A DNA stretch of 64,000 nucleotides from Streptosporangiaceae bacterium (GTDB lineage: Bacteria > Actinomycetota > Actinomycetes > Streptosporangiales > Streptosporangiaceae). Where the stretch lies: positions 15,278-79,277 of the forward strand of contig JAOPYK010000149.1 of NCBI GenBank assembly GCA_025964695.1. Reading direction: 5' to 3'. The position numbers and the translations under genes are program-made. Below, in pieces: positions 10,570 to 30,220 of the stretch. The notes beneath the pieces are model-generated. The model was not told where the DNA came from. It searched no databases and saw only the letters and a program-made list of their open reading frames with translations. Numbering within the stretch: the stretch's first letter is position 1; each line of letters begins with the position of its first letter.

Positions 10570-10593
10570 AGTTCTGCGGTCGTGCGGAGTTGG

Positions 10594-10884: not shown

Positions 10885-10919
10885 GTGAATCCACCTCCCG
10901 AAGATTGTCGGGAGTGGGT

Positions 10920-10943
10920 ATGCCCGTCCGATATGGGCTAAAC
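10920..10943 (-). promoter_or_regulatory. Candidate SigB/SigF-type general-stress promoter
   Basis: minus strand GTTT-N14-GGGCAT upstream of the GlsB/YeaQ gene; resembles the GTTT-N14-16-GGGTAT class. Confidence 0.5.
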
Positions 10944-10985
10944 AAAGCCCAGGTCAGCGGCTCGCAAGGTCCCTCAGGGGCCGGC

Positions 10986-11213
10986 TCAGAAGGTGCTGAA
11001 GCCGACCGAACGAGACTCATCCTCGGAGATCTCCAGATAGCCCACATGTGCGGCCGGGACCACGACCCGCCCGCCGCGCTCGTCGACCAGGATGAACACT
11101 CCGTTCTCGGTCTGGAGAGCCTCCATCAGGGATTGCTCGATCTCGTCCGCCGACACCGTCGTGTCGACGACGATCTCCTTGGCGACCGATTGCACTCCGA
11201 TGCGCACCTGCAC
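10986..11213 (-). CDS. DUF3107 protein (Rv3208A-like)
   Basis: MQVRIGVQSVAKEIVV...LVDERGGRVVVPAAHVGYLEI...RSVGF; position next to TetR matches conserved synteny. Confidence 0.88.
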   Translation of the reverse strand: MQVRIGVQSVAKEIVVDTTVSADEIEQSLMEALQTENGVFILVDERGGRVVVPAAHVGYLEISEDESRSVGFSTF

Positions 11214-11258
11214 GATCGTCTCCCCCTTGGCTGCGGTTGGCAGTGGGCCGGCGTAGGG

Positions 11259-11909
11259 TCAGCCGCCCGCTGAGGTGGTTCCGGTCGGCTCGCCGATGCG
11301 CGGGAAACCGCTGATGCCACGCCAGGCGAGCCTGGCGATGAGCTTCTCGGCGGTGTCCTTGGGAATGGCCCGCTGCTGGGAGAGCCAATACCGGGCGCTG
11401 ACCTCGGCCATGCCGACCAGGCCCATACCGAGCAGATGCGCCTCGTCGCTGGAGGCGTCGGTGTCCTCCTGGATGACCAGGCTGATCATCTCGGCGCACT
11501 GCTGGAGGGCGCGTTCCACCCGCGCCCGGACGGGGGCGACGTTACGCAGGTCCGATTCGAAGACCAGCCGGAACGCCTCGCCCTCACCGGAGACGAAATC
11601 GTAGAACGCCTGCATCGTGGCCGCCACCCGGGACTTGTTCTCCGGGGTGGAGGCCAGTGCGTCGCGCACCCTGGTCACCAGCGCCTCGGCGTGTTCGTCG
11701 AGCAGGGCCAGGTAGAGCTCGAGCTTGCCCGGGAAGTGCTGATACAGCACCGGCTTACTGACCCCGGCGCGTTCGGCGATCTCGTCCATCGCGGCGGCGT
11801 GATAGCCCTGGGCGACGAACACCTCCTGGGCGGCACCGAGCAGCTGTCGACGGCGCGCCATCCGTGGCAGTCGTGTACCACGAGGGCGGGCGTCCGGGAT
11901 CGCCGTCAC
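11259..11909 (-). CDS. TetR/AcrR regulator (Rv3208-like)
   Basis: GYHAAAMDEIAERAGVSKPVLYQHFPGK HTH; C-terminal LAWRGISGFP. Confidence 0.93.
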   Translation of the reverse strand: MTAIPDARPRGTRLPRMARRRQLLGAAQEVFVAQGYHAAAMDEIAERAGVSKPVLYQHFPGKLELYLALLDEHAEALVTRVRDALASTPENKSRVAATMQAFYDFVSGEGEAFRLVFESDLRNVAPVRARVERALQQCAEMISLVIQEDTDASSDEAHLLGMGLVGMAEVSARYWLSQQRAIPKDTAEKLIARLAWRGISGFPRIGEPTGTTSAGG

Positions 11910-13787: not shown

Positions 13788-14693
13788 TTAGGGCAGTTTC
13801 TGGCGTTCTATCGTCAATGGCGCGAACAGGTCTCCCTGCTCCTGCACCCGATCCAGTACCTGGCCGGCGGTGAAGTACAGCTCTTCGGGCCGCTCACACG
13901 CCTCGACCTCGTCCCAGGAGACCGGGGTGGACACCGTCGGATCGTCGGCGGCTCGCAGGGAGTAGGGGGCTACCGTGGTCTTGGCCGGGTTGTTCTGACT
14001 CCAGTCCACGAACACCTTGTCCCTGCGCAGCCGCTTGTCCATACGGCTGATCACCTGGCCGCCGTGGTCGCGCTCCAGTCGTTGCGCGGCCTCCTTGGCG
14101 TACTCGGACGTACGGTCGGACTCGGCGATCGGCACGTACAGGTGCAGGCCCTTCCTGCCGCTGGTCTTGGGATACGACTTCAGCCCGTCGGCGTCGAGAA
14201 GCTCCCGCAGCATCAGGGCCACCCGGCAGGCGTCGACGATCGTGGCCGGCGGCCCCGGATCCAGGTCGAAGACCATCAGATCGGGCTTGTGCACACCGCC
14301 ACGGGGGCCGACCTTCCACTGCGGCACATGGAGTTCGAGGGCCGCGAGGTTCGCGGCCCACACCAGCGTGGGCAGATCGTCGATCACCACGAAGTTCAGC
14401 GACTCGTAGCCACGTGAGCTGCCGGGGGTAGGCAGCTCAACCGTGCGTACCCACTCCGGCGTGTGGGAGGGGGCGTTCTTCTCGAAGAACGAGATGCCCT
14501 CCACCCCGTCGGGAAACCGCTTGCGGGTGGCCGGGCGATCGGCGAGATGGGGCAGCAGCGCCGGAGCCACCCGGGTGTAGTAGTCGATGACCTCACCCTT
14601 GGTGAACCCGTGACGGGGGTAGAGCACCTTGTCCAGGTTGGTCAGCGTCAGCTCGCGCCCGTCCACCTTGACCTGGATCTTCTTGGGGGTCAT
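13788..14693 (-). CDS. ligD: NHEJ polymerase (LigD Pol / primase-like domain), stand-alone
   Basis: LTNLDKVLYP, KRFPDGVEG, FFEKN, FDLDPG, KTSGRKGLH, FVDWSQN, APYSLR. Confidence 0.93.
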   Translation of the reverse strand: MTPKKIQVKVDGRELTLTNLDKVLYPRHGFTKGEVIDYYTRVAPALLPHLADRPATRKRFPDGVEGISFFEKNAPSHTPEWVRTVELPTPGSSRGYESLNFVVIDDLPTLVWAANLAALELHVPQWKVGPRGGVHKPDLMVFDLDPGPPATIVDACRVALMLRELLDADGLKSYPKTSGRKGLHLYVPIAESDRTSEYAKEAAQRLERDHGGQVISRMDKRLRRDKVFVDWSQNNPAKTTVAPYSLRAADDPTVSTPVSWDEVEACERPEELYFTAGQVLDRVQEQGDLFAPLTIERQKLP

Positions 14694-15685
14694 AGGCCGG
14701 GCTCACGGGTCACGCTCGTGGGGGAGAGGTCGGAGCGCAGGCCGCGCCACGACGGCGCGCGCAGCCGGCCGTCCGCCGTCCAGGAGATGAAGGTCACCTC
14801 ACCGACCTTCCGAGGCTCCACCCAGCGGGCGCCCCGAGCGAACTCGTAGGGCACCGACCCCGGCGCGAACGGGCTCGTGGAGCGGCTCAGCGGGCGGAGC
14901 AGCTCCGCGAGATCCGCCAGCGCCCGGTCGGTGAAACCGGTGCCGACATGGCCCACGAACTGGAGTGCCCCCTTGTCGTGGACCCCGAGCAGCAGCGAGC
15001 CGATCCCACCCGCACGCCGGCCCTTGCCGGGCTTCCAACCGCCGATGACGACCTCCTGTGTATGGAAGTTCTTCACCTTGCGCCAGTAGTCGACGCGTTT
15101 CCCCGGCCGATACGGTGAGCCTAGACGCTTGGCGACGAGCCCTTCCAGCCGCTGTTCCCGGGTGTAGTCCACCAGCTCCGCGACCTGCTCGGCGTCGTCG
15201 GCGCGCAGATAGGAGGGTGCCTCGATCGGACCCGCGGTAAGCTCCAGGTCGTCCAGCAGCTCGCGCCGGTCGCTGTACGGCACGTCATACAGCGTGTGCC
15301 CGTCCAGGTAGAGCAGATCGAACACGACGTAGTGGACGGGGACCTCGCGGACCAGCCGCGGATGGGGGGCCGCGACGTGCATCCGATGCTGCAGCCGCCC
15401 GAAGTCGGGGCGTCCGGTGCTGTCGAAGGCCACGACCTCGCCGTCGAGCACCGCTCCCTGATGGGGGATGAGGTCGCCGATGACCGACAGTTCGGGATAG
15501 TGACCGGTGACCTCGGCGCCGCGCCGCGCCGTGGCTCGTACGCCGCCTTTGCCGTCGACGTAGGTGACGACCCGGACCCCGTCCCACTTGAGCTCCAGGC
15601 CCCACTCGGCGGCGTCGGTGTCGGGTAGTTCCCCGGTGGCGGCCACCATCGGCTCCACCAGTTCCGGCATCGAGAACGCGCTCAT
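14690..15685 (-). CDS. ATP-dependent DNA ligase (LigD ligase domain), stand-alone
   Basis: ELKWDGVR adenylation motif, LDGEVV, VFDLLYLDG, EGLVAKR, YRPGKR, WRKVK, LRAPSW. Confidence 0.93.
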   Translation of the reverse strand: MSAFSMPELVEPMVAATGELPDTDAAEWGLELKWDGVRVVTYVDGKGGVRATARRGAEVTGHYPELSVIGDLIPHQGAVLDGEVVAFDSTGRPDFGRLQHRMHVAAPHPRLVREVPVHYVVFDLLYLDGHTLYDVPYSDRRELLDDLELTAGPIEAPSYLRADDAEQVAELVDYTREQRLEGLVAKRLGSPYRPGKRVDYWRKVKNFHTQEVVIGGWKPGKGRRAGGIGSLLLGVHDKGALQFVGHVGTGFTDRALADLAELLRPLSRSTSPFAPGSVPYEFARGARWVEPRKVGEVTFISWTADGRLRAPSWRGLRSDLSPTSVTREPGL

Positions 15686-15821
15686 GTGGACCTTGTGCCC
15701 GGCTTGCCCCCCGGTGACGCGTCATCCGATCAGGATCACAAAAGGATCAAACGGGACTTCTGGTGCATCTCGAACAGGTTTGCGACGCTAGAGGAATGGA
15801 CCGGATGGGTAGGGAGCACGT

Positions 15822-16694
15822 ATGCGCAGCATCTGGAAGGGCGCGATCTCCTTCGGCCTGGTGACCATCCCGGTCAAGCTGTACTCGGCGACCGAGCAGC
15901 GGGACGTCTCGTTCCACCAGGTCCACCGCACCGACGCGGGCCGCATCAAGTACAAGCGCGTCTGCACCGTCTGCGGGGAGGAGGTGGCCTACGCCGACAT
16001 CGCCAAGGGCTACGAACTGCCCAGCGGTGAGATCGTCGTCCTGACCGACGAGGATTTCGCGCACCTGCCGCTGACCACCAGCCGGCGCATCGACGTCCTG
16101 CAGTTCGTGCCGCTCGAGCAGGTCGACCCGATCTACTTCGCCAAGTCGTACTACCTGGAGCCCGAGGGCCAGGGCACCAAGCCGTACGTCCTGCTCCGGG
16201 ACGCGCTGGAGAGCTCGGACAAGGTCGCCCTGGTGAAGGTGGCGCTGCGGCAGCGTGAGTCACTGGCCACGCTGCGGGTCCGCGATGGCGTGTTCGTGCT
16301 GGAGACGATGCTGTGGCCGGACGAGGTGCGCACCCCGAGGTTCTCGTTCATGGACGAAGAGGTGGAGGTCCGGCCGCAGGAGCTCACCATGGCGTCGTCG
16401 CTGATCGAGTCGATGGCGGGCGACCTCGACCTGTCCCAGTACAAGGACGCCTACCGCGAGGCCCTCGAGGCGGTCATCGAGGCCAAGATCGAGGGCAAGG
16501 AGATCGTCCAGCCCGAGGAGGCCGAGGCCGAGACGGGAGCCACCGACCTGCTCAGCGCACTGCGCGCCAGCGTCGAGGCGGCCAAGAAGAGCCGTGCCGA
16601 AGGTGAGAAGGCCACCAAGCCGGCCGCCCGCAAGACCGCCACCAAGAAGCCGGCCGCCAAGAAGCCCGCGGCGAAGTCACGCAAGTCCGCCTGA
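15822..16694 (+). CDS. ku: Ku DNA end-binding protein
   Basis: MRSIWKGAISFGLVTIPVKLYSATE, YKDAYREAL; Lys/Ala-rich C tail. Confidence 0.97.
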   Translation: MRSIWKGAISFGLVTIPVKLYSATEQRDVSFHQVHRTDAGRIKYKRVCTVCGEEVAYADIAKGYELPSGEIVVLTDEDFAHLPLTTSRRIDVLQFVPLEQVDPIYFAKSYYLEPEGQGTKPYVLLRDALESSDKVALVKVALRQRESLATLRVRDGVFVLETMLWPDEVRTPRFSFMDEEVEVRPQELTMASSLIESMAGDLDLSQYKDAYREALEAVIEAKIEGKEIVQPEEAEAETGATDLLSALRASVEAAKKSRAEGEKATKPAARKTATKKPAAKKPAAKSRKSA

Positions 16695-17971: not shown

Positions 17972-18166
17972 TTACTTGTCGAACGTCCTGCGGACGTCCT
18001 TGGCCGCGTCCTTCGCGCGCTCTCCCACCTGCTTCGCGCCGCCCTCGATGCGATCGGCCTTGCCTTCGCCCTCGAGGTACGGGTCGCCGGCCTGACGTCC
18101 GGCCTCTTCCTTGCCGCGGCCCTTGGTCTGCTGAGCCTTGTTCTTCAGCTTGTCCAGGAAGCTCAT
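17972..18166 (-). CDS. CsbD family stress protein
   Basis: DKLKNKAQQTKGRGKEEAG...LEGEGKADRIEGGAKQVGERAKD. Confidence 0.88.
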   Translation of the reverse strand: MSFLDKLKNKAQQTKGRGKEEAGRQAGDPYLEGEGKADRIEGGAKQVGERAKDAAKDVRRTFDK

Positions 18167-18223
18167 GGTTCCTCGTCTCCGTACGGTTGTCGTACTCCAC
18201 CCCGGTGCCCGCTATCGCATGGC

Positions 18224-18397
18224 CTATGCAGATCGTTTGATGTCACTCCGGACCTGGTCGGCGATGTCGTGGATCCGCTGCTCGGTATCGCGTAGCTTGA
18301 CCTCGGCCCTCTCGGTGCGCTGGGCGGCCCGGCGTTCTCGCCAGGTCGGCTTCAGATTCGTGCGGCCCGATCGCTTCGATCGCTTGAAAAGCCCCAT
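18224..18397 (-). CDS. Putative 57-aa basic small protein
   Basis: MGLFKRSKRSG...RDTEQRIHDIADQVRSDIKRSA with GAGGGAG 8 nt upstream of the ATG; no family recognised. Confidence 0.4.
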   Translation of the reverse strand: MGLFKRSKRSGRTNLKPTWRERRAAQRTERAEVKLRDTEQRIHDIADQVRSDIKRSA

Positions 18398-18653
18398 ATC
18401 GCCAACTCCCTCGGCACCTCTTCGCTTCGTCCGGTGTTGCGGTCGGAGAGTCCCCGGATATGTCGACTTCATGCCGGTACCCCTGCTGACCTCGGTGGAA
18501 CACGGGCCGACCAGGGGCTCTGCCGCGGGGGAACGGAGGGGTTCTCCGGGACGTGCGGAGTTCGGGGAATGCCGAGCGACATGGCAGGGTTGTGCCGTAC
18601 GGGACCACGGCGTCCCCCCTCAGAACGACCCGACCCAGCGCAGGAGAACCACC

Positions 18654-19835
18654 GTGTCGTTGCCACCTCTGGTCGAGCCCGCAGCGGAGCTGACCGTCGA
18701 TGAGGTACGCCGCTACTCGCGGCACCTGATCATTCCCGATGTCGGGATGGCCGGGCAGAAACGCCTCAAGAACGCCCGGGTGCTCTGCGTGGGAGCAGGC
18801 GGGCTGGGCTCGCCCGCCCTCATGTACTTGGCCGCGGCCGGCGTCGGGACCCTCGGGGTGATCGACTTCGACACCGTCGACGAGTCCAACCTGCAGCGTC
18901 AGATCATCCACGGCCAGTCCGACGTCGGCCGCTCCAAGGCCGAGTCGGCCGCCTCCACCGTGCGGGAGATCAACCCGCTGGTCAACGTGGTCGTGCACAA
19001 TGAGGCGCTGACCAACGACAACGTCATGGAGCTCTTCGCTCAGTACGACCTGATCGTCGACGGCACGGACAACTTCGCCACCCGGTACATGGTCAACGAC
19101 GCGGCGGTGCTGCTGGGCAAGCCGTACGTCTGGGGTTCGATCTACCGGTTCGATGGCCAGGCCAGCGTCTTCTGGGCCGAGCACGGACCGTGCTACCGCT
19201 GCCTCTACCCCGAGCCGCCGCCTCCTGGCATGGTGCCCTCGTGCGCCGAGGGCGGAGTGCTCGGTGTGCTGTGCGCGTCGATCGGCTCCATCCAGGTCAA
19301 CGAGGCCATCAAGCTGCTGACGGGCATCGGCGAGCCGCTGGTCGGCCGGCTGATGATCTACGACGCCCTGGAAATGACCTACCGTCAGGTCAAGGTCCGC
19401 AAGGACCCCGAATGCCCCCTCTGCGGCAAGAACCCGACGATCACAGAACTGCTCGAGGACTACGAGGCCTTCTGCGGCGCGGTCTCGGAGGAGGCCTCCG
19501 AGGCGGCCGCCGGGTCCACCATCACGGCCCGTGAGCTCAAGGACATGCAGGACCGTGGGGAGGACATCTTCCTGGTCGACGTCCGGGAGATCAACGAGTA
19601 CGAGATCGTCTCCATCCCGGGTGCGACGCTGATCCCCAAGGGCGAGTTCCTCAACGGCTCGGCACTGGAACTGCTGCCCCACGACAAAAAGATCGTTTTG
19701 CACTGCAAGTCGGGGGTGCGCAGTGCGGAGGCGCTGGCCGTGGTGAAGAACGCGGGCTTCTCCGACGCCGTGCACGTGGGCGGCGGCGTACTGGCCTGGG
19801 TCAGCCAGATCGACCCCTCGCTGCCGAGTTACTGA
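18654..19835 (+). CDS. moeZ: Adenylyltransferase/sulfurtransferase (ThiF + rhodanese)
   Basis: RYSRHLIIP, GAGGLGS, SNLQRQ, CYRC, CPLC, rhodanese HCKSGVRS; SD aggaga before GTG 18654. Confidence 0.96.
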   Translation: MSLPPLVEPAAELTVDEVRRYSRHLIIPDVGMAGQKRLKNARVLCVGAGGLGSPALMYLAAAGVGTLGVIDFDTVDESNLQRQIIHGQSDVGRSKAESAASTVREINPLVNVVVHNEALTNDNVMELFAQYDLIVDGTDNFATRYMVNDAAVLLGKPYVWGSIYRFDGQASVFWAEHGPCYRCLYPEPPPPGMVPSCAEGGVLGVLCASIGSIQVNEAIKLLTGIGEPLVGRLMIYDALEMTYRQVKVRKDPECPLCGKNPTITELLEDYEAFCGAVSEEASEAAAGSTITARELKDMQDRGEDIFLVDVREINEYEIVSIPGATLIPKGEFLNGSALELLPHDKKIVLHCKSGVRSAEALAVVKNAGFSDAVHVGGGVLAWVSQIDPSLPSY

Positions 19836-20314: not shown

Positions 20315-21034
20315 CTATGTGAGGTCGTGGGTGAGGCCGAGGCGCTCGGCGAGATCGTGCATCATGAGGTCGAACATCGGGCCCGACTCGTCCAGGGCGA
20401 AGCTCATGTGCCCGAAGACCTCCAGCGTGACGAATCCCTGCAGCCGGATCCAGCAGCTGAGGAACACCACGATGACCCCGCTGGGCAGGTCGGGGACGCC
20501 TAGATGGCCGCGGTAGCGCTCGATCTGCGTCCGCAGTGCCGGATCGATCTCGTCGTCGGCGGGCACCGGGAACGGCTTGACACGCCACAGCTCCAGAAAG
20601 AGAGCGACGAAGGTGCGGCCGAAGCGACGCCCGCACTCGGCCGTCCAGTCCTCCTCGGCACCGGCCTCCCCGCTGGGCAGGGGCGTGCCGAAGAGCAGTG
20701 CGTACTCGCGCCGGTGGTCGAGCGCCCAGCGCCGGAACTCGACGGACGCGGCGAGGAACTTGCCCTTGAGAAAATCCTCGGGCACCCCGCGGATCGCGCC
20801 CTCGATGTCGTCGGTGAGTTCGGTGAACAGATCGCCGGCGATGTGGCGCAGCAGTTCCTGATGGCTGTCGAAGTAGCGGTAGAGAGCCGGCGCCGTCATC
20901 CCCATCTCGCGGGCGATCGCACGGAGCGTCACCGCGTCCGGGCCCTCCCGGACGAGGATGCGCCGCGCGGTCTGGGTGATCTCGCGCACGGTCGCCGCGC
21001 GCAGCCGGTCGCGTCGTGTCCCGGTTTGGTGCAT
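20315..21034 (-). CDS. TetR family regulator with WHG-type C-terminal domain
   Basis: VTLRAIAREMGMTAPALYRYF HTH; WALDHRREYALLFG; WIRLQGFVTLE. Confidence 0.9.
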   Translation of the reverse strand: MHQTGTRRDRLRAATVREITQTARRILVREGPDAVTLRAIAREMGMTAPALYRYFDSHQELLRHIAGDLFTELTDDIEGAIRGVPEDFLKGKFLAASVEFRRWALDHRREYALLFGTPLPSGEAGAEEDWTAECGRRFGRTFVALFLELWRVKPFPVPADDEIDPALRTQIERYRGHLGVPDLPSGVIVVFLSCWIRLQGFVTLEVFGHMSFALDESGPMFDLMMHDLAERLGLTHDLT

Positions 21035-21095
21035 CACGTCACCTCCTTCCCGGGATCGGCTCGGTGGTGTCACCGATGTTCCCGCATCATGCCCG

Positions 21096-21164
21096 ACGAA
21101 CACTATTGACGGAAGTGAACGCCGTATGCGAGGTTAACACTGTTCGTGAGTTAACAGTGTTCAT
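21096..21164. promoter_or_regulatory. Array of 3-4 imperfect palindromic operator-like sites between divergent TetR and MMPL
   Basis: acgaacactattgac, gtgaacgccgtatgc, gttaacactgttcgt, gttaacagtgttcat (AAC-N3-GTT core) at 17-19 bp spacing. Confidence 0.6.
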
Positions 21165-21202
21165 TTCGGTAACGGTGAGTAGCGACTTTTTGGGAGGAAG
21201 CG

Positions 21203-23380
21203 ATGTTCGAGGCATGGGGCCGGTTCGTGCACAGACGAAGGTGGCCGATCCTCGCGCTGGCGTTCGCGGCCATCGCGTTCATGGCCATCTGGGGTACGGG
21301 GGTGTTCGGCGCGCTCACCTCGACCGGCGGATTCGACGTTCCGGGCAGTGGCAGTGTCAAGGCCTCCGAGACCGCCCAGCGCCAGCTCGGGCGCTCCGAA
21401 GCCGACGTGGTGGTGCTCTACCGCGACCCGGCGGGCCGCACGATCGACGACCCCGCCTACAAGGCGGCCGTCACCGGCTCCCTCGGCGCGCTGCCGAAGG
21501 ACAAGGTGGCCGCCACGACGACGTACTGGTCGGCCGGCGCACCCGCTCTGGTGAGCAAGGACCGCAAGGCGACCTACGCGGTACTGCAGCTGACCGGCGC
21601 CGACGACAAGGCACGCCAGGACGACTACGACGCCATCAAGGACAGGCTGGGCGCGCCCGGGCTCACCACCCGGATCGGCGGGACCGTGCCGACCGCGGAA
21701 AAGATCAACACTCAGGTGAGCAGTGACATCGGCAAGGCCGACGCGATCTCGTTCCCGGTGCTTTTGATTCTGCTGGTGGTCATCCTCGGTGGCCTGGCCG
21801 CGGCGAGCCTTCCGCTGGCCATCGGCGCCACGGCGATCCTGGGTTCCTTCACTGCGCTGCGCCTGCTCACCTACGGGACCGATGTCTCGATCTTCGCCAT
21901 CAACATCACGATCTTCCTCGGGCTGGGGCTGGCCATCGACTACGGCCTGTTCATGGTGGCCAGATTCCGGGAGGAGCTGCGCCGGTCGAACGACACCGAG
22001 GAGGCACTGGCGCGCACGATGGCCACCGCCGGACGTACCGTCGCGGTCTCCGGAATCACGGTCGCGGTGTCCATGTCCGGGCTGCTGCTCTTTCCCATGC
22101 TGTTCCTGCGGTCGATGGGGTTCGGCGGGATCGCCACCGTGGCCGTGGACATGCTGGCGGCGCTCACGATCATGCCCGCCCTGCTGGCGGTGCTCGGCCC
22201 GCGGGTCGACTCGCTGCGGGTGCCCTTCCTCCGGCGCTCGGCGCCGAAGGAGCAGGGCGCGTGGTTCAGGCTCGCGCAGGGCGTCATGCGGCGCCCGATC
22301 CTGGCCATCGTGGGTACGGTCGCGCTCCTGCTCGCTCTGGGCCTGCCCTTCCTGCGCATCACCTGGGGCGGGGTGGACTCGCGGGTGCTTCCCTCCGGCG
22401 CCGAGTCGCGGGTGGTCGCCGAGGCGCTCGACCAGGACTTCACCCGCAACGCCACCAGCCCCATCCAGGTCGTGCTGACCGGACGGCCGGATCAGGCCGG
22501 GCCGTACGCCGACCGGCTCAGGAAGGTACCGGGCGTGACCGGTGCCCAGCTGACCGGTGCCCGCGGCGACACCTCGCGGATCTCCCTGTCGTACCAGGGC
22601 GAGACCCTGTCCGACCAGGCCCGCGGCATCGTGGCGAAGGTGCGGGACGTGCCGCCGCCCGCCGGTACGCAGGCGTACGTCGGCGGTCAGAGCGCGGAGA
22701 TGGCCGACCAGCTCGACAGTCTCGGTGCCAACCTGCCCTGGCTGGGTCTCGTGGTGGGAGCGGGCACGTTCCTGCTGCTCTTCCTGGCCTTCGGCTCGGT
22801 GGTGCTGCCGATCAAGGCAATGATCATGAACATGCTGTCGTTGTCGGCGATGTACGGCGTACTGGTGTGGATCTTCCAGGACGGCCACTTGTCCGGTCTG
22901 CTGGACTTCACCGCGACCGGGAGCATCGCCCCGGCCATGCCGATCGTCCTGCTGGCCCTGGTGTTCGGCCTGTCCATGGACTACGAGGTGTTCCTGCTGT
23001 CCCGGGTCCGGGAACGGTACGACGCGACCGGCGACAACACCAGAGCGGTCGCGGAGGGCCTGCAGCGGACCGGCGGGATCATCAGCAGCGCCGCGTTGCT
23101 GCTGCTCGTGGTGATCGGAGCATTCTCCGGCTCCGGCATCTCATTCATCAAGCTCACCGGCGTCGGAATGATCATCGCGCTGGTCGTCGATGTGACGATC
23201 GTCCGGGCCGTGCTGGTGCCCGCCACGATGCGCGTGCTCGGCCGTGTCAATTGGTGGGCGCCCGGCCCGCTGGGCAGGCTCTACACCCGCTATGGGATCG
23301 GAGAAGGTGCCTCAGAGGTCGTCGTCGCCGACAGGCCGAAGGGCGACACGCCGCCCAGGCTCGAGTCGGCCTCCGCCTGA
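21203..23380 (+). CDS. MMPL family transporter
   Basis: GLGLAIDYGLF, ATAGRTVAVSG, FGLSMDYEVFLLSR, TGGIISSAA; two TM repeats. Confidence 0.95.
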   Translation: MFEAWGRFVHRRRWPILALAFAAIAFMAIWGTGVFGALTSTGGFDVPGSGSVKASETAQRQLGRSEADVVVLYRDPAGRTIDDPAYKAAVTGSLGALPKDKVAATTTYWSAGAPALVSKDRKATYAVLQLTGADDKARQDDYDAIKDRLGAPGLTTRIGGTVPTAEKINTQVSSDIGKADAISFPVLLILLVVILGGLAAASLPLAIGATAILGSFTALRLLTYGTDVSIFAINITIFLGLGLAIDYGLFMVARFREELRRSNDTEEALARTMATAGRTVAVSGITVAVSMSGLLLFPMLFLRSMGFGGIATVAVDMLAALTIMPALLAVLGPRVDSLRVPFLRRSAPKEQGAWFRLAQGVMRRPILAIVGTVALLLALGLPFLRITWGGVDSRVLPSGAESRVVAEALDQDFTRNATSPIQVVLTGRPDQAGPYADRLRKVPGVTGAQLTGARGDTSRISLSYQGETLSDQARGIVAKVRDVPPPAGTQAYVGGQSAEMADQLDSLGANLPWLGLVVGAGTFLLLFLAFGSVVLPIKAMIMNMLSLSAMYGVLVWIFQDGHLSGLLDFTATGSIAPAMPIVLLALVFGLSMDYEVFLLSRVRERYDATGDNTRAVAEGLQRTGGIISSAALLLLVVIGAFSGSGISFIKLTGVGMIIALVVDVTIVRAVLVPATMRVLGRVNWWAPGPLGRLYTRYGIGEGASEVVVADRPKGDTPPRLESASA

Positions 23381-23390
23381 CCTCCCGCCC

Positions 23391-23424
23391 GCCGTGATCA
23401 TGCGTTCGATCCCGTGATCACGGC
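23391..23424. repeat. GTGATCA-armed palindrome
   Basis: gccgtgatca...tgatcacggc directly after the MMPL stop. Confidence 0.7.
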
Positions 23425-23433
23425 GGGTGGGCG

Positions 23434-24192
23434 GTGGAGCGGGAAAGCGCAGTTGGCGGCTACGCTCCAACTGTGGCGGATCGTGTTCTGGGTCTCGGGG
23501 GCAGACAGTGGCTGGTCGTCGCCGCGTGCGTCGCCGCCGGTTATCTGTTGCTGAGCACCGTCGCCCTCGCCGGTCTCTGGACGAACCTGCACCGCGCGCC
23601 CACCAACGCCGAACTCCAGCAGGCGGCGAACGTCGAGGTGGCGGGTCGCTGGGAGTCCTGGACGGCCGGCCAGATCTTCCCCGACCGGCTGCCCTACGAG
23701 GTCGTCGGGGAGGGCGAGTACGCCCGCCGGGTCGGAATGGACTCCCGCACGGACTGCACCGGCACAGTCGACCAGGCGATCGTCCCGATCCTGGCCCGGC
23801 ACGGTTGCCGGGCCGTGCTGCGCGCCACCTACCTGGACCAGCTTGAGGGCATCGTGGTCACGGTCGGTGTGGTGGCCTTCCCGGACGAGCAGTCGGCCTA
23901 TCAGGCCCGCAAGGAACTGGCCGGCGATCCGACGTCCCTGCGCGCGCTGCCGCTGCCGGGCACCGCGGCCGCCCGGTTCACCGACCCCGCGCGGCAGGAC
24001 GGGTCGGCGGAGCGGGCCGGACCGTACATCGTCCTCACCACGGCCGGTCAGACCGACGGGCGCCCGGCCACCACCGTCCGCAAGGGCCGTGAGGGGATCT
24101 TCGACGTGGCGCCGCAGCTCGCGCACGCGATCGGCGTACCGCTGGCGCAGCGAGCACTGCCGGACTGCAAGGCCAAGGAGTGGACATGCTGA
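23434..24192 (+). CDS. Membrane-anchored 4-Cys hypothetical protein (subtilase partner 1); start uncertain
   Basis: N-terminal TM; RW...AGQIFP, GCRAVLRATYLDQ, TVGVVAFPDE, DGRP, CKAKEWTC-stop; paralog of 25480 and 27594. Confidence 0.8.
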   Translation: MERESAVGGYAPTVADRVLGLGGRQWLVVAACVAAGYLLLSTVALAGLWTNLHRAPTNAELQQAANVEVAGRWESWTAGQIFPDRLPYEVVGEGEYARRVGMDSRTDCTGTVDQAIVPILARHGCRAVLRATYLDQLEGIVVTVGVVAFPDEQSAYQARKELAGDPTSLRALPLPGTAAARFTDPARQDGSAERAGPYIVLTTAGQTDGRPATTVRKGREGIFDVAPQLAHAIGVPLAQRALPDCKAKEWTC

Positions 24193-25439
24193 GACGCTCG
24201 CTGTCCGTCCTGGTCGCCGCGGTGCTCGTCGTGGCCCCTGGCCTGCCGTCCCGTCCGGCGTCCGCCGACGTCGTCCGTGACAGGCAGCAGGCGATGCTCA
24301 CGACTCTCGATCTGGCCACGGCCTGGCGGACGACGCGAGGCACCGGCGTCACGGTCGGGGTCGTGGACACCGGGGTGGACGCCGGGAATCTCGACTTCAA
24401 GGGTGCGGTGACCACGGGACCGAACTTCCTTCAGAACATCGACAGAGGCACGGCGCCCAAGCGGTTGCACGGAACGGCGATGGCCTCGCTGATCGCGGGG
24501 CGCGGGCACGGCACGGGGAACCGCGACGGAGTCGTCGGGGTCGCCCCGGAGGCCCGGGTCGTAGCCGTACGGGCCCTCGGCGAGAAGGAGGACGCCAGCT
24601 TCAAGTCCTACCAGGCCGACCTGGAGGCGGAGTCCACCGCGATCGCCGGGGGGATCAGGTATGTCGTAGACCATGGCGCCGACGTGATCAACCTGTCGCT
24701 TGGCTCGTACGGCCGGGGCACGGACATCCGCCGGGCGGTGGCCTACGCCATCGACCACAACGTGGTCGTCGTCGCGGCCGTGGGCAATGACGGCGACAGC
24801 CGCCGCAAGGTCGACGACAACGGCTTCGCGCCGTACAGCTACCCGGCGGCGTACCCGGGGGTCATCGGAGTGGCGGCCACCGACCCCAGGCATGAGCGGG
24901 CCTTCTTCTCCAACCGGAACTACTCGGCGCTGGTGGCGGCTCCGGGTGCGGAACTGCCCGCGGGCCTGCCCGGGAACGGCTACGAGCTCGTCTCAGGGAC
25001 CAGCCCGGCCACCGCACTGGTCTCCGGGACCGCGGCCCTGATCCGCGCCCGCTATCACAAGCTGGCACCGCCCCTGGTCGCCCAGGCACTGCTGACCGGC
25101 ACCACGCACCGGCCGGGAAGCGGCTACGACGCGGACGTCGGATACGGCGAAATCAATGCGGCCCGGGCACTGGAGGCGGCGGCGAAGCTCGCCGGTTACA
25201 CGGCCGCCGGCCCGACGGGCATCCCGGCCGGGAGCAGGTTCGTCGAGAAGAAACCGGGCCCGGTACACGTCATCCCGCGCCCCGCCTGGTTCACCGGCGG
25301 GGTCTTCACCGTCGGCCTGGTCAGCCTGATCGGCCTCTTCGTCGCGCTGCTGACCGGGTGGCTGCTTTTCCGCCGTATCTCCGGCGGCCCTGACGCCGGG
25401 TCGCCGCCATCGGAAGCGTCGCGCGCGGCCATTCCCTGA
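24186..25439 (+). CDS. S8 subtilase, mycosin-like, intact catalytic triad
   Basis: Signal peptide (ASA-D), VDTG, HGT, GND, GTSPA, C-terminal TM + RR. Confidence 0.92.
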   Translation: MLRRSLSVLVAAVLVVAPGLPSRPASADVVRDRQQAMLTTLDLATAWRTTRGTGVTVGVVDTGVDAGNLDFKGAVTTGPNFLQNIDRGTAPKRLHGTAMASLIAGRGHGTGNRDGVVGVAPEARVVAVRALGEKEDASFKSYQADLEAESTAIAGGIRYVVDHGADVINLSLGSYGRGTDIRRAVAYAIDHNVVVVAAVGNDGDSRRKVDDNGFAPYSYPAAYPGVIGVAATDPRHERAFFSNRNYSALVAAPGAELPAGLPGNGYELVSGTSPATALVSGTAALIRARYHKLAPPLVAQALLTGTTHRPGSGYDADVGYGEINAARALEAAAKLAGYTAAGPTGIPAGSRFVEKKPGPVHVIPRPAWFTGGVFTVGLVSLIGLFVALLTGWLLFRRISGGPDAGSPPSEASRAAIP

Positions 25440-25479
25440 TCCCGCAGGAACTGGCTTTATCCGGCGCGCTCGTGGCCTG

Positions 25480-26376
25480 GTGGCTGCTGCCCTGGCGTAT
25501 GTGCGGCCGGCGTCCACCGATGTCCATGCCGGCTGGCCGTCGGCGCGTCTCCGGTACGCCGGCCGGTCATGGGCCGGGGGCGTCTCGGTGCACGGAGGTC
25601 GGCTACCCTTCGCATTCGTGCCAGAAGTCGACATCGTGGATGAGTGGCCAGCGCCGGTTCCCGGCACTTCGAGGTGGCGGAGCCAGGTGCTGCCGGCCGG
25701 ACTGGTGGCCGCGATCTGCCTGACCGCCGTGGTGGTCGCGGGCGTTCGCATCACCGGGGAACTGACCCGTGCTCCGCACCCGGCCGAGCTTCGGCAGGCA
25801 AGCGTCCTCGAGGTCGCCCGGCGGTGGCAGACCTGGTCCGCGGGCAAGATCTTCCCGGCCACGGTCGGCTACACCCTGGAGGAGGGTGGCCCGGAGACCG
25901 CCCGGCTCGTGGGCATCGGCACCGCCGCCTCCTGCGATACCGGTCTGGATCCCGCCGCTGCCGGCGCGGTACGGCCGTACGGCTGCCGCGCGGTGCTGCG
26001 GGCCACCTACCTCGACCAGAGCCAGGGTTCGGCGATGACCGTCGGGGTGGCTGCGTTCCCCGACGAGCGATCGGCGGCGCAGGCGAAGAATGGTCTGCGG
26101 TCGGTGAAGGGCCCGGCGCGCCTCAGGGCGCTGGCGTTCCCCGACTCCGCCGTGGCCAGGTTCGCCGACTCCGCCGTACAGCGGTCGGCCGCCGCCGCGC
26201 AGAGCGGACCGTACGTCGCATTCGCGGTGATCGGCTATGCCGACGGACGGCCGCCTCCCCCGAACCGGCAGGGCGGACTGCTGCCTGATGTGGCCGATGA
26301 CCTGGCCAAGGCCGTGCTAACCCCGCTGGCCACCCCCGCCCGGGTCGACTGCGTCCAGCCGGGCTGGTCATGCTGA
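25480..26376 (+). CDS. Membrane-anchored 4-Cys hypothetical protein (subtilase partner 2); start uncertain
   Basis: TM (LVAAICLTAVVVAGV); AGKIFP, GCRAVLRATYLDQ, DGRP, CVQPGWSC-stop. Confidence 0.8.
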   Translation: MAAALAYVRPASTDVHAGWPSARLRYAGRSWAGGVSVHGGRLPFAFVPEVDIVDEWPAPVPGTSRWRSQVLPAGLVAAICLTAVVVAGVRITGELTRAPHPAELRQASVLEVARRWQTWSAGKIFPATVGYTLEEGGPETARLVGIGTAASCDTGLDPAAAGAVRPYGCRAVLRATYLDQSQGSAMTVGVAAFPDERSAAQAKNGLRSVKGPARLRALAFPDSAVARFADSAVQRSAAAAQSGPYVAFAVIGYADGRPPPPNRQGGLLPDVADDLAKAVLTPLATPARVDCVQPGWSC

Positions 26377-27551
26377 GGCGGCCGATGGCGGTCCTGGCCA
26401 CCGGTCTGCTGCTCGCTGCGAGCACCGTGGGTACGGCCCGGGCCGACCAGGTGCGCGACGACGAGGAGTCTTCTCTCAGCGCCGTAAAGGCCCGGCAGGC
26501 CTGGGACGTCAGCCGGGGCAGGGGCGTCACCGTCGCGGTGCTCGACTCCGGGGTCGACTCGGCCCAGCAGGACCTGGTGGGCTCGGTCACCACCGGCCCC
26601 GACTACACCCAGGGTGCCAACCCGCCGGGCGTGGCCCCCAAGCGTCTGCACGGCACCAACATGGCGTCGATCATCGCGGGTCACGGCCATGGACCTGGCG
26701 GCGGTGACGGGATCATCGGCGTCGCCCCCGAGGCGAGGGTCCTGTCGATCCGGGTGATCCTGGAGAACGATGAGCCGGGGTTCCAGATCTTCAACGGCAA
26801 CGAACGCTTCGACGGCTCGATCGCCAAGGGGATCCGCTACGCGGTCGACCATGGTGCGAACGTGATCAACATGTCGCTCGGCAAGGCGGACTCCACCAAG
26901 GAGGACCGGCAGGCAGTCGACTACGCGCTCTCGAAGGGCGTGGTGGTGGTCGCCGCCGCGGGCAACCAGGGCGCCACCCCGACGGCTCGCCGGGACGGTC
27001 ACGCTCCGTACTCGTATCCGGCCTCCTACCCCGGCGTCATCGCGGTGGCCGCGGTCGACGCCGCCCATCGGCACGCCGGATTCTCCAACCGCAACTCGGC
27101 CGTCGTGGTGTCCGCGCCCGGGGTCAAGGTGATCGGCGCCGGCCCGAACGACACCTACTGGGTCGGGGACGGGACCAGTCCCGCCACGGCGTTCGTCTCA
27201 GGTGTGGTGGCGCTGATCCGGTCCAGGTATCCCGGCCTCCAACCGGCGTTGGTCACCCAGGCGATCGTGGCGAGTACAGCGGCCCGGCCCTCGAGCGGTT
27301 ACGACCCCGGCGTCGGCTTCGGCGAGGTGGACGCGGTCGCAGCCCTCGCCGCCGCCCACCGGCTCACCGGTGCCAAGATGTCCGGAGTCGGACAGAGCGG
27401 CGATCGGCGTTTCGGCGGCGGTGGCGCGCTGCCGCCGATTCAGGTCATCCATCGCGACGGCGGTGCGCTGGTGACCTGGAGCGTCATCGGCACGTTCGGT
27501 CTGGTGGGGCTGATCGTGGCAGTGGGCTTCCTGGTCACCCGGCGTTCATGA
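26370..27551 (+). CDS. S8 subtilase, mycosin-like, intact catalytic triad
   Basis: Signal peptide (ARA-D), LDSG, HGT, GNQ, GTSPA, C-terminal TM + RR. Confidence 0.92.
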   Translation: MLRRPMAVLATGLLLAASTVGTARADQVRDDEESSLSAVKARQAWDVSRGRGVTVAVLDSGVDSAQQDLVGSVTTGPDYTQGANPPGVAPKRLHGTNMASIIAGHGHGPGGGDGIIGVAPEARVLSIRVILENDEPGFQIFNGNERFDGSIAKGIRYAVDHGANVINMSLGKADSTKEDRQAVDYALSKGVVVVAAAGNQGATPTARRDGHAPYSYPASYPGVIAVAAVDAAHRHAGFSNRNSAVVVSAPGVKVIGAGPNDTYWVGDGTSPATAFVSGVVALIRSRYPGLQPALVTQAIVASTAARPSSGYDPGVGFGEVDAVAALAAAHRLTGAKMSGVGQSGDRRFGGGGALPPIQVIHRDGGALVTWSVIGTFGLVGLIVAVGFLVTRRS

Positions 27552-27593
27552 GGTTGTGGATCTTCCCTCGAACGACACTTCCTGTCCGATACC

Positions 27594-28514
27594 TTGCAAT
27601 CCGTGTCAAATAGTGATGAGACGGTCGAGGGTGGACAGGAGCCCCCTCCGCCACAGGTGAACCCGGATCCTCCAGCGGTCCAGGAATCGGTCAGGGAACC
27701 CGTGACAGAGTTGCCGGTTGCAGATCAGCCGGTCACGGAGCCCGTGACCGCGGTGCCAGGGCCCCTTCCGGTAGGGATCCCCGGCCAGGGGCAGCCGCCG
27801 CGCTCGCGGCGCCGCCGGATCCGCACCACCGCGCTCATCGCACTGGGAGTCCTGGGGCTGGGCGCGCTCGGGGGTGGCGGTTTCGCCGTCGTCCGGGAGA
27901 TGACCCGGCCGCCGACCACCGCCGAGGTCGATGCGGCGGGCACCGCCGAGAGCCGGTTGAGATGGCGGCTCCGGTCGGCGGGCGAGATCTTCCCGGCCAC
28001 CGTCCCGTACATGAACGGCTGGGTCGGCGACAAGCGGCAAGCCCACCGGATCGGCGTCGCCTCGGCGGCGGGCTGCGCGCAGGCCTTGGATCGGGAGGTC
28101 GCCGAGGCGGTGGCCAAGCAGGGCTGTCTCACGGTCCTGCGGGCCACCTACGCGGACCAGTCGGGCGCCTTGCTGATGACGCTGGGCGTCGCCGTGATGC
28201 CGGATGAGGACAAGGCGGATGCGGCCGAATCCGCGCTGCAAGCGGTACGCGAGAGCCGGGGCGTTCGCCCGGCGGCCTTCCCGAACACCGTGGCCGAGCG
28301 ATTCGGCGACTCTCAGCGCCAGGTGCTGAGCATGCAGTCGAACCACACCTCCTACCTCTTCCTGTCCGCCGAGGGCTGGGCCGATGGCCGTCCGAAGGTC
28401 AAGGCGAGTGATCGGGTGGAGGACTTCAGCTTCTCCGGCGAGATCCTGACGGCCGTGATCGGCAAGTTCGCGCGCAGCGGGGCGCCCTGCGGAGCCAAGG
28501 AGGTCCAGTGCTGA
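27594..28514 (+). CDS. Membrane-anchored 4-Cys hypothetical protein (subtilase partner 3); start uncertain
   Basis: Pro-rich N-terminus, RRRR + TM; AGEIFP, GCLTVLRATYADQ, DGRP, CGAKEVQC-stop. Confidence 0.8.
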   Translation: MQSVSNSDETVEGGQEPPPPQVNPDPPAVQESVREPVTELPVADQPVTEPVTAVPGPLPVGIPGQGQPPRSRRRRIRTTALIALGVLGLGALGGGGFAVVREMTRPPTTAEVDAAGTAESRLRWRLRSAGEIFPATVPYMNGWVGDKRQAHRIGVASAAGCAQALDREVAEAVAKQGCLTVLRATYADQSGALLMTLGVAVMPDEDKADAAESALQAVRESRGVRPAAFPNTVAERFGDSQRQVLSMQSNHTSYLFLSAEGWADGRPKVKASDRVEDFSFSGEILTAVIGKFARSGAPCGAKEVQC

Positions 28515-29899
28515 AGCGCATCACCGTGGGTGCGGGGCTGCTCACGCTCCTGCTGCCGGGCACCGTCGTCGTCCCGTCCGCAGCCCAGGCCGATGATCTC
28601 GCCGTGGTCAAGCAGCTCGTCCGCGATCTGAACGCGGCCCGGCGCATCACCAAGGGCAGGGGCATCACGGTCGCGATCGTCAGCACCGGAGTGGACGGGT
28701 CGGTCGGCTCGCTGCGCGGCAAGGTCAAACCCGGCAGGGATTTCGTGAACAACGGCCATCCCAAGAAGATCACAGGCACCTTGCTGGCCTCGTTGATCGC
28801 AGGGGCCGGCCTCACCCACTATTCGCCGGTCGGCATGCGGGGTCTCGCCTCCGGTACGGACATCCTGCCGGTCCGGATCGCTCCTGATCAGGAGGAGCCG
28901 GGCAGCAAGGCGTTCTACGGACGCTCGGACTTCACGGAGATCGAGGCGAAGGGGATTCGCTACGCGGCCGACCAGGGTGCCCAGATCATCTGCATCGATT
29001 TCTACTCGTGGGGAGACGACGTGGCACCTATTCGGGCCGCTGTCTCCTATGCGCTGTCGAAGAACGCGACGGTCGTCGCCGGCGCTGCCCGTGGCAGCGA
29101 CGACGAGACCGTCCCGATCTTCCCTGCCGCTGAGCCGGGCGTCATCGGGGTGGGCGCTCTCGACACCAAAGGTCATCGGATCGCCAAGCTGTCCGCCAGG
29201 AACAGTTCGGTCATCGTCGGGGCACCGGGGTTCACGTTCCCCTCCATCGGGCCCGGCGACTCGCTCTGGACCGTCAAGGGCCCCCTCCCCGCCGTGGCCT
29301 GGGTGGCCTCGACCGCGGCACTGGTCCGGGCGGAGCATCCCAAACTGACCCAGGCTCAGGTCGCGCAGGTGATCACCTCTTCGGCCCACCATCCCACCTC
29401 GGGTTATGACACCGAGGTCGGATTCGGGGTCATCAACCCCGTGGGCGCGCTCAAAGCGGCGGAGGCACTGGAGAAGAGCCCTTCCGCCGTCGCCGGCCGG
29501 GGCGCGGTCGGGGACAAGGCGCGCTTCGGAGGGCACCCGCCCGCGAAGATCCAGGCCGTACGTCACAGCAAGGGCCTGCTGGCCGGCTTCGGCGGACTCG
29601 CCGCGGCCGGACTCCTCGCCATCGTGCTGGCGGCAATCCTGGCGATCCGAGGGCGACGCCGCTCCACCGCCCTCGCCACGACCCCGGGCATGTCTCCGGC
29701 CGCAGCGGAGGGCCCGGCCCCGGCCGCGCCGCCAGGCATGTCTCCGGGCACAACACCGGCCGTGTCGCCACTCGGATCCCCGGGGACGCCACCGGCCGGC
29801 CCACGGTCCGCCGCGACCAGTGACGAAAGCGGTCCGGACGGCGCTCTCCCCGAGAGGGATCCGACCGGCGAGCCGGGAGTGGCGGAGGAGACCGGGTGA
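28508..29899 (+). CDS. S8 subtilase homolog lacking catalytic residues (pseudoprotease)
   Basis: Collinear with the two paralogs but D->S (IVSTG), H->T (ITGT), N->R (AARG), S->L (GPLPA); signal peptide, TM and Pro/Ala tail retained. Confidence 0.8.
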   Translation: MLKRITVGAGLLTLLLPGTVVVPSAAQADDLAVVKQLVRDLNAARRITKGRGITVAIVSTGVDGSVGSLRGKVKPGRDFVNNGHPKKITGTLLASLIAGAGLTHYSPVGMRGLASGTDILPVRIAPDQEEPGSKAFYGRSDFTEIEAKGIRYAADQGAQIICIDFYSWGDDVAPIRAAVSYALSKNATVVAGAARGSDDETVPIFPAAEPGVIGVGALDTKGHRIAKLSARNSSVIVGAPGFTFPSIGPGDSLWTVKGPLPAVAWVASTAALVRAEHPKLTQAQVAQVITSSAHHPTSGYDTEVGFGVINPVGALKAAEALEKSPSAVAGRGAVGDKARFGGHPPAKIQAVRHSKGLLAGFGGLAAAGLLAIVLAAILAIRGRRRSTALATTPGMSPAAAEGPAPAAPPGMSPGTTPAVSPLGSPGTPPAGPRSAATSDESGPDGALPERDPTGEPGVAEETG

Positions 29900-29914: not shown

Positions 29915-30220
29915 ATGCCGGCAGATCCCGATGACTACGCCGAGTTCGTACTCGAGGTGGTCGAGCGCATCCCGCGTGGACGAGTCATGTCGTACGGAGA
30001 CGTCGCGGAGTTCCTCGGGCTCGGTGGTCCTCGCCAGGTCGGCAGGGTGATGTCGATGAGCGGTGGCGGGGTCCCGTGGTGGCGGGTGATCCGGGCCGAC
30101 GGCAGTCCTCCGCCCGGCCACGAGCAGCGGGCTCTGGATCACTATCGCGAAGAGGGCACGCCGATGCGCCCGGGCGGCATCAGGGTCGATATGCGGCGGG
30201 CCCGCTGGGACGGTACGTGA
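29915..30220 (+). CDS. Alkyltransferase-like (ATL/MGMT family) protein
   Basis: IPRGRVMSYGDVA, PRQVG, VPWWRV (Trp in place of the MGMT active Cys). Confidence 0.9.
   Translation: MPADPDDYAEFVLEVVERIPRGRVMSYGDVAEFLGLGGPRQVGRVMSMSGGGVPWWRVIRADGSPPPGHEQRALDHYREEGTPMRPGGIRVDMRRARWDGT

Follow-up and report, generated by a model that had tools for sequence, protein, structure and literature searches.

In a 64,000-nucleotide stretch of DNA from a Streptosporangiaceae bacterium (contig JAOPYK010000149.1; G+C ~70%; hereafter the window), six genes lie in a row on the forward strand (23434-29899) in the order P1-S8a-P2-S8b-P3-S8c, where P denotes a four-Cys membrane protein, here called the partner, and S8 a tail-anchored member of the S8 subtilase family. 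We find that the partner-S8 pair is the unit of this array, and that this unit, which has apparently not been described before, is old and conserved among actinobacteria. We see even chances that such pairs work as 1:1 heterodimers of sensor and protease at the cell surface, with the catalytically dead third module in the role of a receptor, and that they do so independently of type VII secretion. The gene order on one strand, as given in a preliminary description of this DNA, is confirmed by the list of open reading frames (ORFs), and the arrangement is far beyond chance, recurring in 76 of 77 loci from other genomes.

These 77 loci come from a scan of one genome per GTDB species that was seeded with conserved peptide patterns, and nearly all of them belong to Streptosporangiales (Actinomadura, Spirillospora, Thermomonospora, Nonomuraea, Sphaerisporangium, Microbispora, Planobispora, Streptosporangium, Rhizohabitans, Bailinhaonella), some being metagenome-assembled genomes (MAGs), one from Nocardiopsaceae. 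In 76 of them a same-strand S8 gene lies directly 3' of the partner gene. With the window included this gives 148 pairs, and the arrays hold one pair (19 cases), two (46), three (11) or four (1). An NTGCTGA overlap between the end of the partner gene and the start of the S8 gene is present in 136 of the 148 pairs, and the last residue of the partner is Cys in 145. The sole fetched locus with a partner-like ORF that lacks an adjacent S8 gene (L077, Actinomadura scrupuli contig 3, ~7911-8300) is a distant and partial match (33% identity over 90 residues), which may be an ordinary PknH_C-type protein. In a co-evolution test on between-locus distances, with the species signal held constant and S8 proteins shuffled among the partners within a locus, cognate partner and S8 distances correlated at r = 0.917, compared with 0.266 +/- 0.055 (maximum 0.484) for the shuffles, none of which reached 0.917 in 1000 rounds. 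Moreover, for partners at position 1, 2 or 3, and likewise for their S8 proteins, the closest counterpart in another genome holds the same position in 118 of 122 cases. This orthology by position across genera implies that the duplications copied whole pairs and predate the divergence of the genera. Hence the earlier proposal that the pair is what has been duplicated is supported.

Among the most divergent family members adjacency was sampled through three contigs and through natural fusions. Partners of a distant subfamily from uncultured high-GC actinobacteria end in CPGAPGC and are 35-45% identical to those of the window, the accompanying MoeZ proteins being 81-84% identical to that of the window (Nonomuraea MoeZ, 91%). 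The three long contigs inspected for this subfamily all show the order SecA, DUF6459, moeZ, P, S8 (with intact triad), alkyltransferase-like gene and UvrD/PD-(D/E)XK helicase, and the 7-nt overlap is kept in two of the three. As for fusions, one MAG gene (P0121, locus L074) encodes partner and dead S8 in a single frame, and with this protein as the query at least 12 more clusters of fusions (617-801 aa) came up, which makes at least 13 in all, 12 of them with an intact triad. Their order is an N-terminal transmembrane segment, the four-Cys partner domain, a Pro-rich linker, an S8 domain without signal peptide, a C-terminal transmembrane segment and a Pro-rich cytoplasmic tail. These natural fusions show that both ectodomains act on the same side of the membrane and are parts of one entity. 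The neighbours of one fusion gene, on a contig of 407 kb, include purC, NAD kinase and recN-type genes, and none nearby belongs to type VII secretion. The C-termini of six fusions (P0216, P0224, P0226, P0228, P0230, P0231) share ...DYPNSWFDPQ/R, RWFDPP, and this hints at a possible conserved docking site in the cytoplasm.

In the window, the longest ORFs on the forward strand run from 23434 to 24192 (P1), 24180 to 25439 (S8a), 25480 to 26376 (P2), 26370 to 27551 (S8b), 27594 to 28514 (P3) and 28508 to 29899 (S8c). P1 is predicted to be a type II single-pass membrane protein with a four-Cys, PknH_C-like ectodomain, and P3 consists of a Pro-rich, Arg-rich cytoplasmic tail, a transmembrane segment and an ectodomain with every family motif. 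For P1, P2, P3 and S8a the real starts probably lie downstream of the longest-ORF starts. The likely start of P1 is GTG 23473, which would give 239 aa, the same length as in the Actinomadura scrupuli orthologue; that of S8a is likely ATG 24186, that of P2 GTG 25636 or GTG 25687 (the latter yielding the 229-aa database form P0002) and that of P3 GTG 27702 (270-aa form P0003). At the P1/S8a junction (24186-24192) the sequence ATGCTGA joins the TGC (Cys) and TGA codons of the partner with the start codon of the S8 gene; the P2/S8b junction (26370-26376) is identical in form, and the P3/S8c junction (28508-28514) shows the same overlap with a GTG start (GTGCTGA). The (A/G)TGCTGA overlap thus suggests translational coupling of partner and S8. 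Upstream, directly 3' of the stop codon of an MMPL gene, there is a near-perfect stem-loop of ~20 bp without a T-run (23380-23436, forward strand; -45.9 kcal/mol, z = -7.3), which is probably an actinobacterial-type terminator or regulatory stem and probably separates the array from the MMPL gene; the P1 start at 23473 lies 3' of this hairpin. Scans of the array for promoter and terminator consensus sequences gave matches at chance level only. Of the genomes searched, that of Actinomadura scrupuli is closest to the window; it has the same gene order and a partner ectodomain that is 87% identical.

The three partners are 33-46% identical to one another, and RxPxxAE, RW..AGxIFP, C..D, GCxxVLRATYxDQ, TxGVxxxPDE, RFxD, DGRP and a terminal Cx6C are invariant in all of them, which bears out each motif listed in the preliminary description together with the N-terminal membrane span. 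A hydropathy scan, the sole basis on which signal peptides and transmembrane segments were called in this work, found one such span per partner (about residues 27-45 in P1). Four Cys residues (C108, C125, C245 and C252 in P1 numbering), all located beyond the transmembrane helix, are invariant across 56 sequences, and the ectodomain probably contains two disulfides. The family is large (905 clusters at 50% identity with E <= 1e-3, 164 with E <= 1e-30), the named database entries for homologues all read 'hypothetical protein', and no NCBIfam model matches the window partners. In Pfam, too, these stay below threshold (P1 with 21.5 bits against DUF7373_N, for which the cutoff is 27, P2 with 13.9 bits and P3 with no match). 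Among the 56 homologues, 25 match PknH_C (PF14032; E <= 0.01, best 7.1e-7) and 20 match DUF7373_N (PF24088; best 3.1e-9), scores that seem to indicate remote kinship at the level of a superfamily rather than membership by threshold. The AlphaFold2 model of P1 (predicted local distance difference test, pLDDT, 90.2; predicted template-modelling score, pTM, 0.81) shows a long transmembrane helix and behind it an alpha/beta domain built from some six strands and flanking helices. In a Foldseek search of this model against the PDB, PknH (4esq) ranked second (E = 0.064, TM-score 0.27/0.33, values lowered by the long helix) and mycobacterial TiME (7cu9) came near the top (probability 0.77). We conclude that the partner is in all likelihood a divergent, remote member of the PknH_C/DUF7373 group of sensor domains, a placement made because of profile matches and domain architecture, not fold statistics, and that it is no orphan fold. 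The PknH sensor domain itself has two intramolecular disulfides and a large cleft whose ligand is unknown, and it recurs in several lipoproteins of M. tuberculosis (PMC4118811). A role of the partner as anti-sigma factor or in regulated proteolysis was considered and rejected after Pfam scans revealed neither zf-HC2 nor any other cytoplasmic domain.

As for the S8 proteins, which share 35-48% identity, the D/H/N/S set is complete in S8a (D61, H95, N201 and S273 when numbered from the Met of ATG 24186) and in S8b, and both are predicted to be active. A hydrophobic span at the C-terminus is common to all three, and S8a and S8c also have a hydrophobic leader at the N-terminus; the S8b leader, MLRRPMAVLATGLLLAAS, resembles a signal peptide by eye but is below the hydropathy threshold. 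Peptidase_S8 (PF00082) is the only Pfam domain and begins at about residue 50, with 154.4 (S8a), 156.8 (S8b) and 59.4 bits (S8c), all past the gathering threshold of 21.8; there is no Pfam match to an I9 propeptide in any of the three. Thus, from the protease topology proposed earlier, the missing propeptide domain and the C-terminal anchor can be retained throughout, as can the signal peptide for S8a and S8c, while for S8b it is recognised by eye only. The best NCBIfam match is the model of type VII secretion mycosins (TIGR03921), aligned end to end including the C-terminal anchor, yet with 235.8 (S8a), 257.7 (S8b) and 199.2 bits (S8c) all three are under its curated cutoff of 278.75. By sequence, the closest solved structures are intracellular and classical subtilisins, and the fold search, run with the S8 domain of a fusion homologue, leads to subtilisin BPN', subtilisin E and savinase (TM-score 0.86, 36-38% identity), with mycobacterial MycP chains absent from the best 60 sequence matches and the best 50 fold matches. 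The window proteins therefore fail both defining tests of a type VII secretion mycosin, the hidden Markov model cutoff and the ESX locus, and the earlier label 'mycosin-like' suits their topology, given that mycosins combine a signal peptide with a tail anchor (PMC10924467), but not their identity. S8a (24186-24200) and S8b (26370-26384) begin with MLRR, a twin arginine in the n-region, and S8c with MLKR, the first residues being constrained by the overlap with the Cys-stop of the partner. Export through the twin-arginine translocation (Tat) pathway was considered and is doubtful, as the n-regions of orthologues are not consistently twin-arginine; mycosins, for their part, are generally not Tat substrates (PMC10924467).

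In S8c all four catalytic residues are changed (D to S, H to T, oxyanion N to R and S to L) and the SLG substrate-strand motif has been lost, so that two of the three modules in the preliminary description can stand as active whereas the third is a pseudoprotease. This is not peculiar to the window: third or fourth modules of arrays are catalytically dead in 12 of 12 cases after one artefact is set aside. What occupies the catalytic positions of dead S8 proteins varies by genus (STRL, AMLA, ALKQ, GYDG, AEHP, SNDR and others), which suggests that the loss may be old and was followed by drift at those positions. When the 120 closest database relatives of a dead S8 were inspected, 108 were dead, and the other 12, whose catalytic set is intact, coincide with the fusions. 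Compared with A. scrupuli, P3 has a dN/dS of 0.37 and S8c one of 0.48 (0.17-0.40 in modules 1 and 2); selection on module 3 is relaxed, albeit still purifying. In the S8 alignment, 59 columns are conserved in active and dead groups alike and 22 in the active group only; the four catalytic positions belong to the latter, as does Ser171 in the SLG strand that binds substrate. S8c therefore shows the pattern of a pseudoprotease, in that the S8 fold is kept and the catalytic residues are lost in a protein which is under selection beside active paralogues. Because the dead module is conserved and P3 keeps all partner motifs, the conserved role of the partner cannot depend on S8 catalysis.

A further variant comes from the array of Rhizohabitans arisaemae (L084, the same as L067; BLRH01000029.1, locus coordinates 2659-11908), inside which P0266 is encoded, a protein with a Pkinase domain (residues 15-263, 157.5 bits), a Pro-rich linker, a transmembrane segment and a partner domain (405-635; score against the profile of the family, 222 bits). 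In this array the genes run moeZ, P, an active S8, the kinase-P fusion, three dead S8 genes in succession (the first with GLPS), P and S8; the array is thus expanded to at least five S8 genes, and two dead S8 proteins are without a partner of their own. The kinase-P fusion is joined to a dead S8 by the GTGCTGA overlap. Since its ectodomain is nearest to P3 of the window (153 bits, versus 127 for P1 and 115 for P2) and the dead S8 proteins of R. arisaemae are nearest to S8c, it is a P3/S8c-type module that is wired to a cytoplasmic kinase in this species, as PknH is. To us this is the strongest indication that the partner may be a sensor with a dead subtilase as its extracellular companion. Among the four roles which the preliminary description had entertained for the partner (chaperone, inhibitor, substrate or sensor), that of sensor is accordingly best supported, by the PknH_C matches and by the kinase fusion.

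The array occupies a vertically inherited housekeeping neighbourhood that stretches from moeZ to adnAB. The conserved upstream neighbour is a moeZ-type gene (ThiF plus rhodanese; 18654-19835, forward strand), found upstream of the array in 67 of the 77 loci (median distance, 442 bp). Its longest ORF in the window (18138-19835) would encode 565 aa, compared with ~393 aa in orthologues, and the ThiF domain begins only at residue 193; because of this length and position the real start must lie near 18654, and the ~170 codons upstream of it are probably non-coding. A TetR/MMPL pair (20315-23380) sits between the moeZ-type gene and the array in the window. Downstream, the forward-strand gene at 29915-30220 (101 aa) encodes an alkyltransferase-like (ATL) protein, identified as such because it has the DNA-binding domain of MGMT only (DNA_binding_1) and PWWRV in place of the reactive-Cys motif. 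An ATL gene follows the array in 39 loci (median 53 bp), with AdnAB-type helicases after it, and in L080 and L082 there is an overlap between its start and the S8 stop; it may share a transcript with the array. The only window ORFs longer than 1000 aa are UvrD/PD-(D/E)XK helicase-nucleases, so the 64 kb contain no EccC-sized gene, though no explicit search for WXG100 proteins was made. No type VII secretion component was recognised among the neighbour families conserved around the 77 loci, and none in the Pfam-annotated contexts L078-L084. The array does, as stated in the preliminary description, stand apart from ESX loci, at a housekeeping site between moeZ and the ATL gene with its AdnAB-type helicases, and the partner-S8 system is, judging from these gene contexts, most likely independent of type VII secretion.

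Taken together, our findings may be accommodated by a model in which each pair gives rise to a complex of two subunits that sits on the outside of the cytoplasmic membrane. Its one subunit would be the partner, a type II single-pass protein with a divergent PknH_C-type ectodomain, and the other the S8 protein, an exported subtilase without propeptide that is held by its C-terminal anchor. Both would be made from overlapping reading frames, probably by coupled translation, and each partner may pair 1:1 with its own cognate S8. In modules 1 and 2, which appear catalytically competent, the sensor subunit would recognise a ligand or an envelope cue and then gate or target the protease. Module 3 would act by binding, as a receptor or co-receptor that does not cleave, and may signal via the long Pro-rich cytoplasmic tails of P3 and S8c (~83 aa in the latter). 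One may go further and see in these modules an unrecognised class of actinobacterial receptors, in which a PknH-type sensor always depends on a subtilase fold, whether active or dead, as its extracellular co-receptor, the active forms carrying out ligand-gated proteolysis of envelope or secreted proteins and the dead ones signalling across the membrane by way of their cytoplasmic tails, or of a fused Ser/Thr kinase in some lineages. This extension is tentative, and we regard it as possible rather than probable.

Several points weigh against the sensor/protease model. The physical binding of partner and S8 is something we infer, as we do the identity of a ligand and the direction of regulation. 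The AlphaFold2 prediction for one natural fusion (pLDDT 85, pTM 0.54) has a disordered linker and does not predict the packing of the domains with confidence. Kinship to PknH is open to challenge from several sides, too: PknH_C is matched in Pfam by none of the three window partners, the Foldseek search of the P1 model against the PDB gave no match at E <= 1e-3 and the likeness to the PknH fold is weak, and sequence searches of the PDB with partner profiles matched nothing useful. No ligand is known for any PknH_C domain (PMC4118811), and the window partners are without a recognisable cytoplasmic output domain. The kinase fusion is a single case among 150 family representatives, and retrieving loci by peptide patterns biases the sample towards close relatives.

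Among other explanations, the partner might be a prodomain in trans, that is, a dedicated foldase and/or temporary inhibitor that takes the place of I9, its PknH-like fold being incidental. The S8 proteins do come without a propeptide, the partner gene lies directly upstream and, in the fusions, the partner domain stands N-terminal to the catalytic domain where a propeptide usually is, and a dedicated chaperone or inhibitor would suit the 1:1 coupling and the tight co-evolution of cognates. We nonetheless hold this to be unlikely. The same partner domain also serves as the ectodomain of a Ser/Thr kinase, which in addition makes the earlier argument that the missing propeptide calls for a chaperone a weak one; dead S8 proteins keep their partners under purifying selection, so inhibition of catalysis is not the conserved role; and their loss of the SLG substrate strand would argue against canonical binding in the cleft. 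Mycosins, moreover, fold and are active without a cleaved propeptide. Alternatively, the partner could be a substrate whose ectodomain the S8 protein cleaves, as the site-1 step of regulated proteolysis, with signal release or shedding. While tethering on the same membrane face, the long cytoplasmic tails of P3-type partners and the label 'anti-sigma factor RsiW', given to one homologue by the Joint Genome Institute (JGI), speak for such a scenario, we think it quite improbable given that neither the window partners nor the cytoplasmic extensions of eight long homologues contain an anti-sigma or output domain, that the dead module, though incapable of cleavage, is conserved with its partner, and that intact-triad fusions persist as single reading frames.

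It could also be that the S8 proteins are true mycosin paralogues, satellites to a type VII secretion system encoded elsewhere, with the partner as an accessory or substrate of that system. This would accord with TIGR03921 as the best, end-to-end NCBIfam match that takes in the anchor, with a topology identical to that of mycosins (PMC10924467) and with the JGI pipelines, which name some partner-S8 fusions 'type VII secretion-associated mycosin'. It is hard to reconcile with scores (236, 258 and 199 bits) that all miss the cutoff of 278.75, with nearest structures that are plain subtilisins and best-match sets (60 by sequence, 50 by fold) devoid of MycP, or with a fixed housekeeping position (moeZ ... 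adnAB) that has no EccC-sized gene within 64 kb and no type VII secretion component among the conserved neighbours of the 77 loci or in L078-L084, and we consider it very improbable. Finally, as the array lies in a strongly syntenic, vertically inherited region, adjacency might simply have been inherited, leaving partner and S8 without any functional link; to this we attach next to no credence, for mere synteny cannot explain the 7-nt overlap, duplication by pairs, cognate-specific co-evolution or repeated fusion.

If partner and S8 do form surface sensor/protease pairs, how do they relate to systems already known? Like the mycosins (MycP1-5; TIGR03921), window-type S8 proteins have an S8 domain, a signal peptide, a C-terminal anchor and no I9 propeptide, and the conserved dead module described here has a parallel in the documented structural, non-catalytic role of MycP, which stabilises the ESX complex and whose proteolytic activity can be dispensed with (PMC5082899). 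Unlike mycosins, they fall below the family cutoff, lie away from ecc/esx, have a core closest to classical subtilisins (36-38%, TM-score 0.86) and are always paired with, or fused to, a PknH_C-like protein that is no known component of type VII secretion. The partners resemble the PknH sensor domain (4esq; PknH_C) and the lipoproteins LppH, LpqQ, LprH, LpqA and Rv3705c in having, outside the cytoplasm, a ~200-aa alpha/beta domain in which four Cys are conserved; in this group the domain can be free, carry a membrane or lipid anchor or follow a Hanks kinase on its C-terminal side, and the last is the architecture of P0266. Kinship is very remote, however, with the window partners below Pfam thresholds and a weak fold match, and the partner subfamily differs in having the second Cys of a Cx6C (or Cx5C) loop as its very last residue and in its coupling to a subtilase gene, a pairing undescribed for PknH_C proteins. 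In the Csp proteins of Clostridioides difficile, active (CspB) and dead (CspA, CspC) subtilase paralogues are likewise encoded together, and the dead members, which have non-catalytic roles, are conserved as signal receptors or transducers (PMC7200643, PMC12880746). Yet these are soluble spore proteins with prodomains and without a PknH-like partner, in an unrelated lineage and cellular location, so the likeness is one of working logic only, with no homology beyond the S8 fold. Classical pre-pro-subtilisins share with the fusions the order of export signal or anchor, N-terminal accessory domain and catalytic domain; here, in contrast, the accessory domain is sensor-like and of ~200 aa rather than an I9 fold of ~77 aa, and the partner is usually a separate membrane protein that is kept with dead proteases and also occurs on a kinase.

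Our literature search found no description of the partner-S8 pair or of the partner family, and no curated Pfam or NCBIfam model names the partner. Both domains come from known superfamilies and the use of a dead subtilase as receptor has precedent, while the pairing itself is apparently undescribed. Sensor domains of the PknH type occur widely in actinobacteria, Mycobacterium tuberculosis among them, and what they bind and with whom they act is unknown. The co-evolving and sometimes fused membrane-tethered subtilase provides such domains with a conserved genetic partner, and the series of active and dead modules together with the kinase-fused variant make the question of PknH-type sensors testable. 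Should the receptor-class reading be true, PknH_C domains would gain in the subtilase a functional partner, the first for this family. Conservation of dead subtilases beside active ones, known from the clostridial Csp proteins, is here seen in a second lineage. Users of databases may beware of an annotation trap, since some automated pipelines label family members as type VII secretion-associated mycosins though these are not linked to that system.

Some minor observations concern the wider window. A role of the array in a defence system was considered and set aside: PADLOC has no matches for the partners or S8c, and S8a and S8b give generic subtilase-domain matches only. Upstream of the moeZ-type gene there is a set for non-homologous end joining (13788-16694), made up of two LigD-like ORFs on the reverse strand, recognised by eye, and a Ku gene on the forward strand (Pfam Ku, 194 bits), and this set is syntenic with the array in many loci. 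Further downstream, on the reverse strand (43545-48618), AMP-dependent ligase-like, IucA/IucC-like and ATP-grasp-like ORFs, assigned by eye from their translations, lie in a row and look like a small siderophore-type cluster independent of non-ribosomal peptide synthetases. Between the ligase-like and IucA/IucC-like ORFs of this cluster, a tandem repeat with a 15-nt unit, TCGGGAGTTCATGGT, runs from 45435 to 45508 in 4.9 copies with 94% matches.

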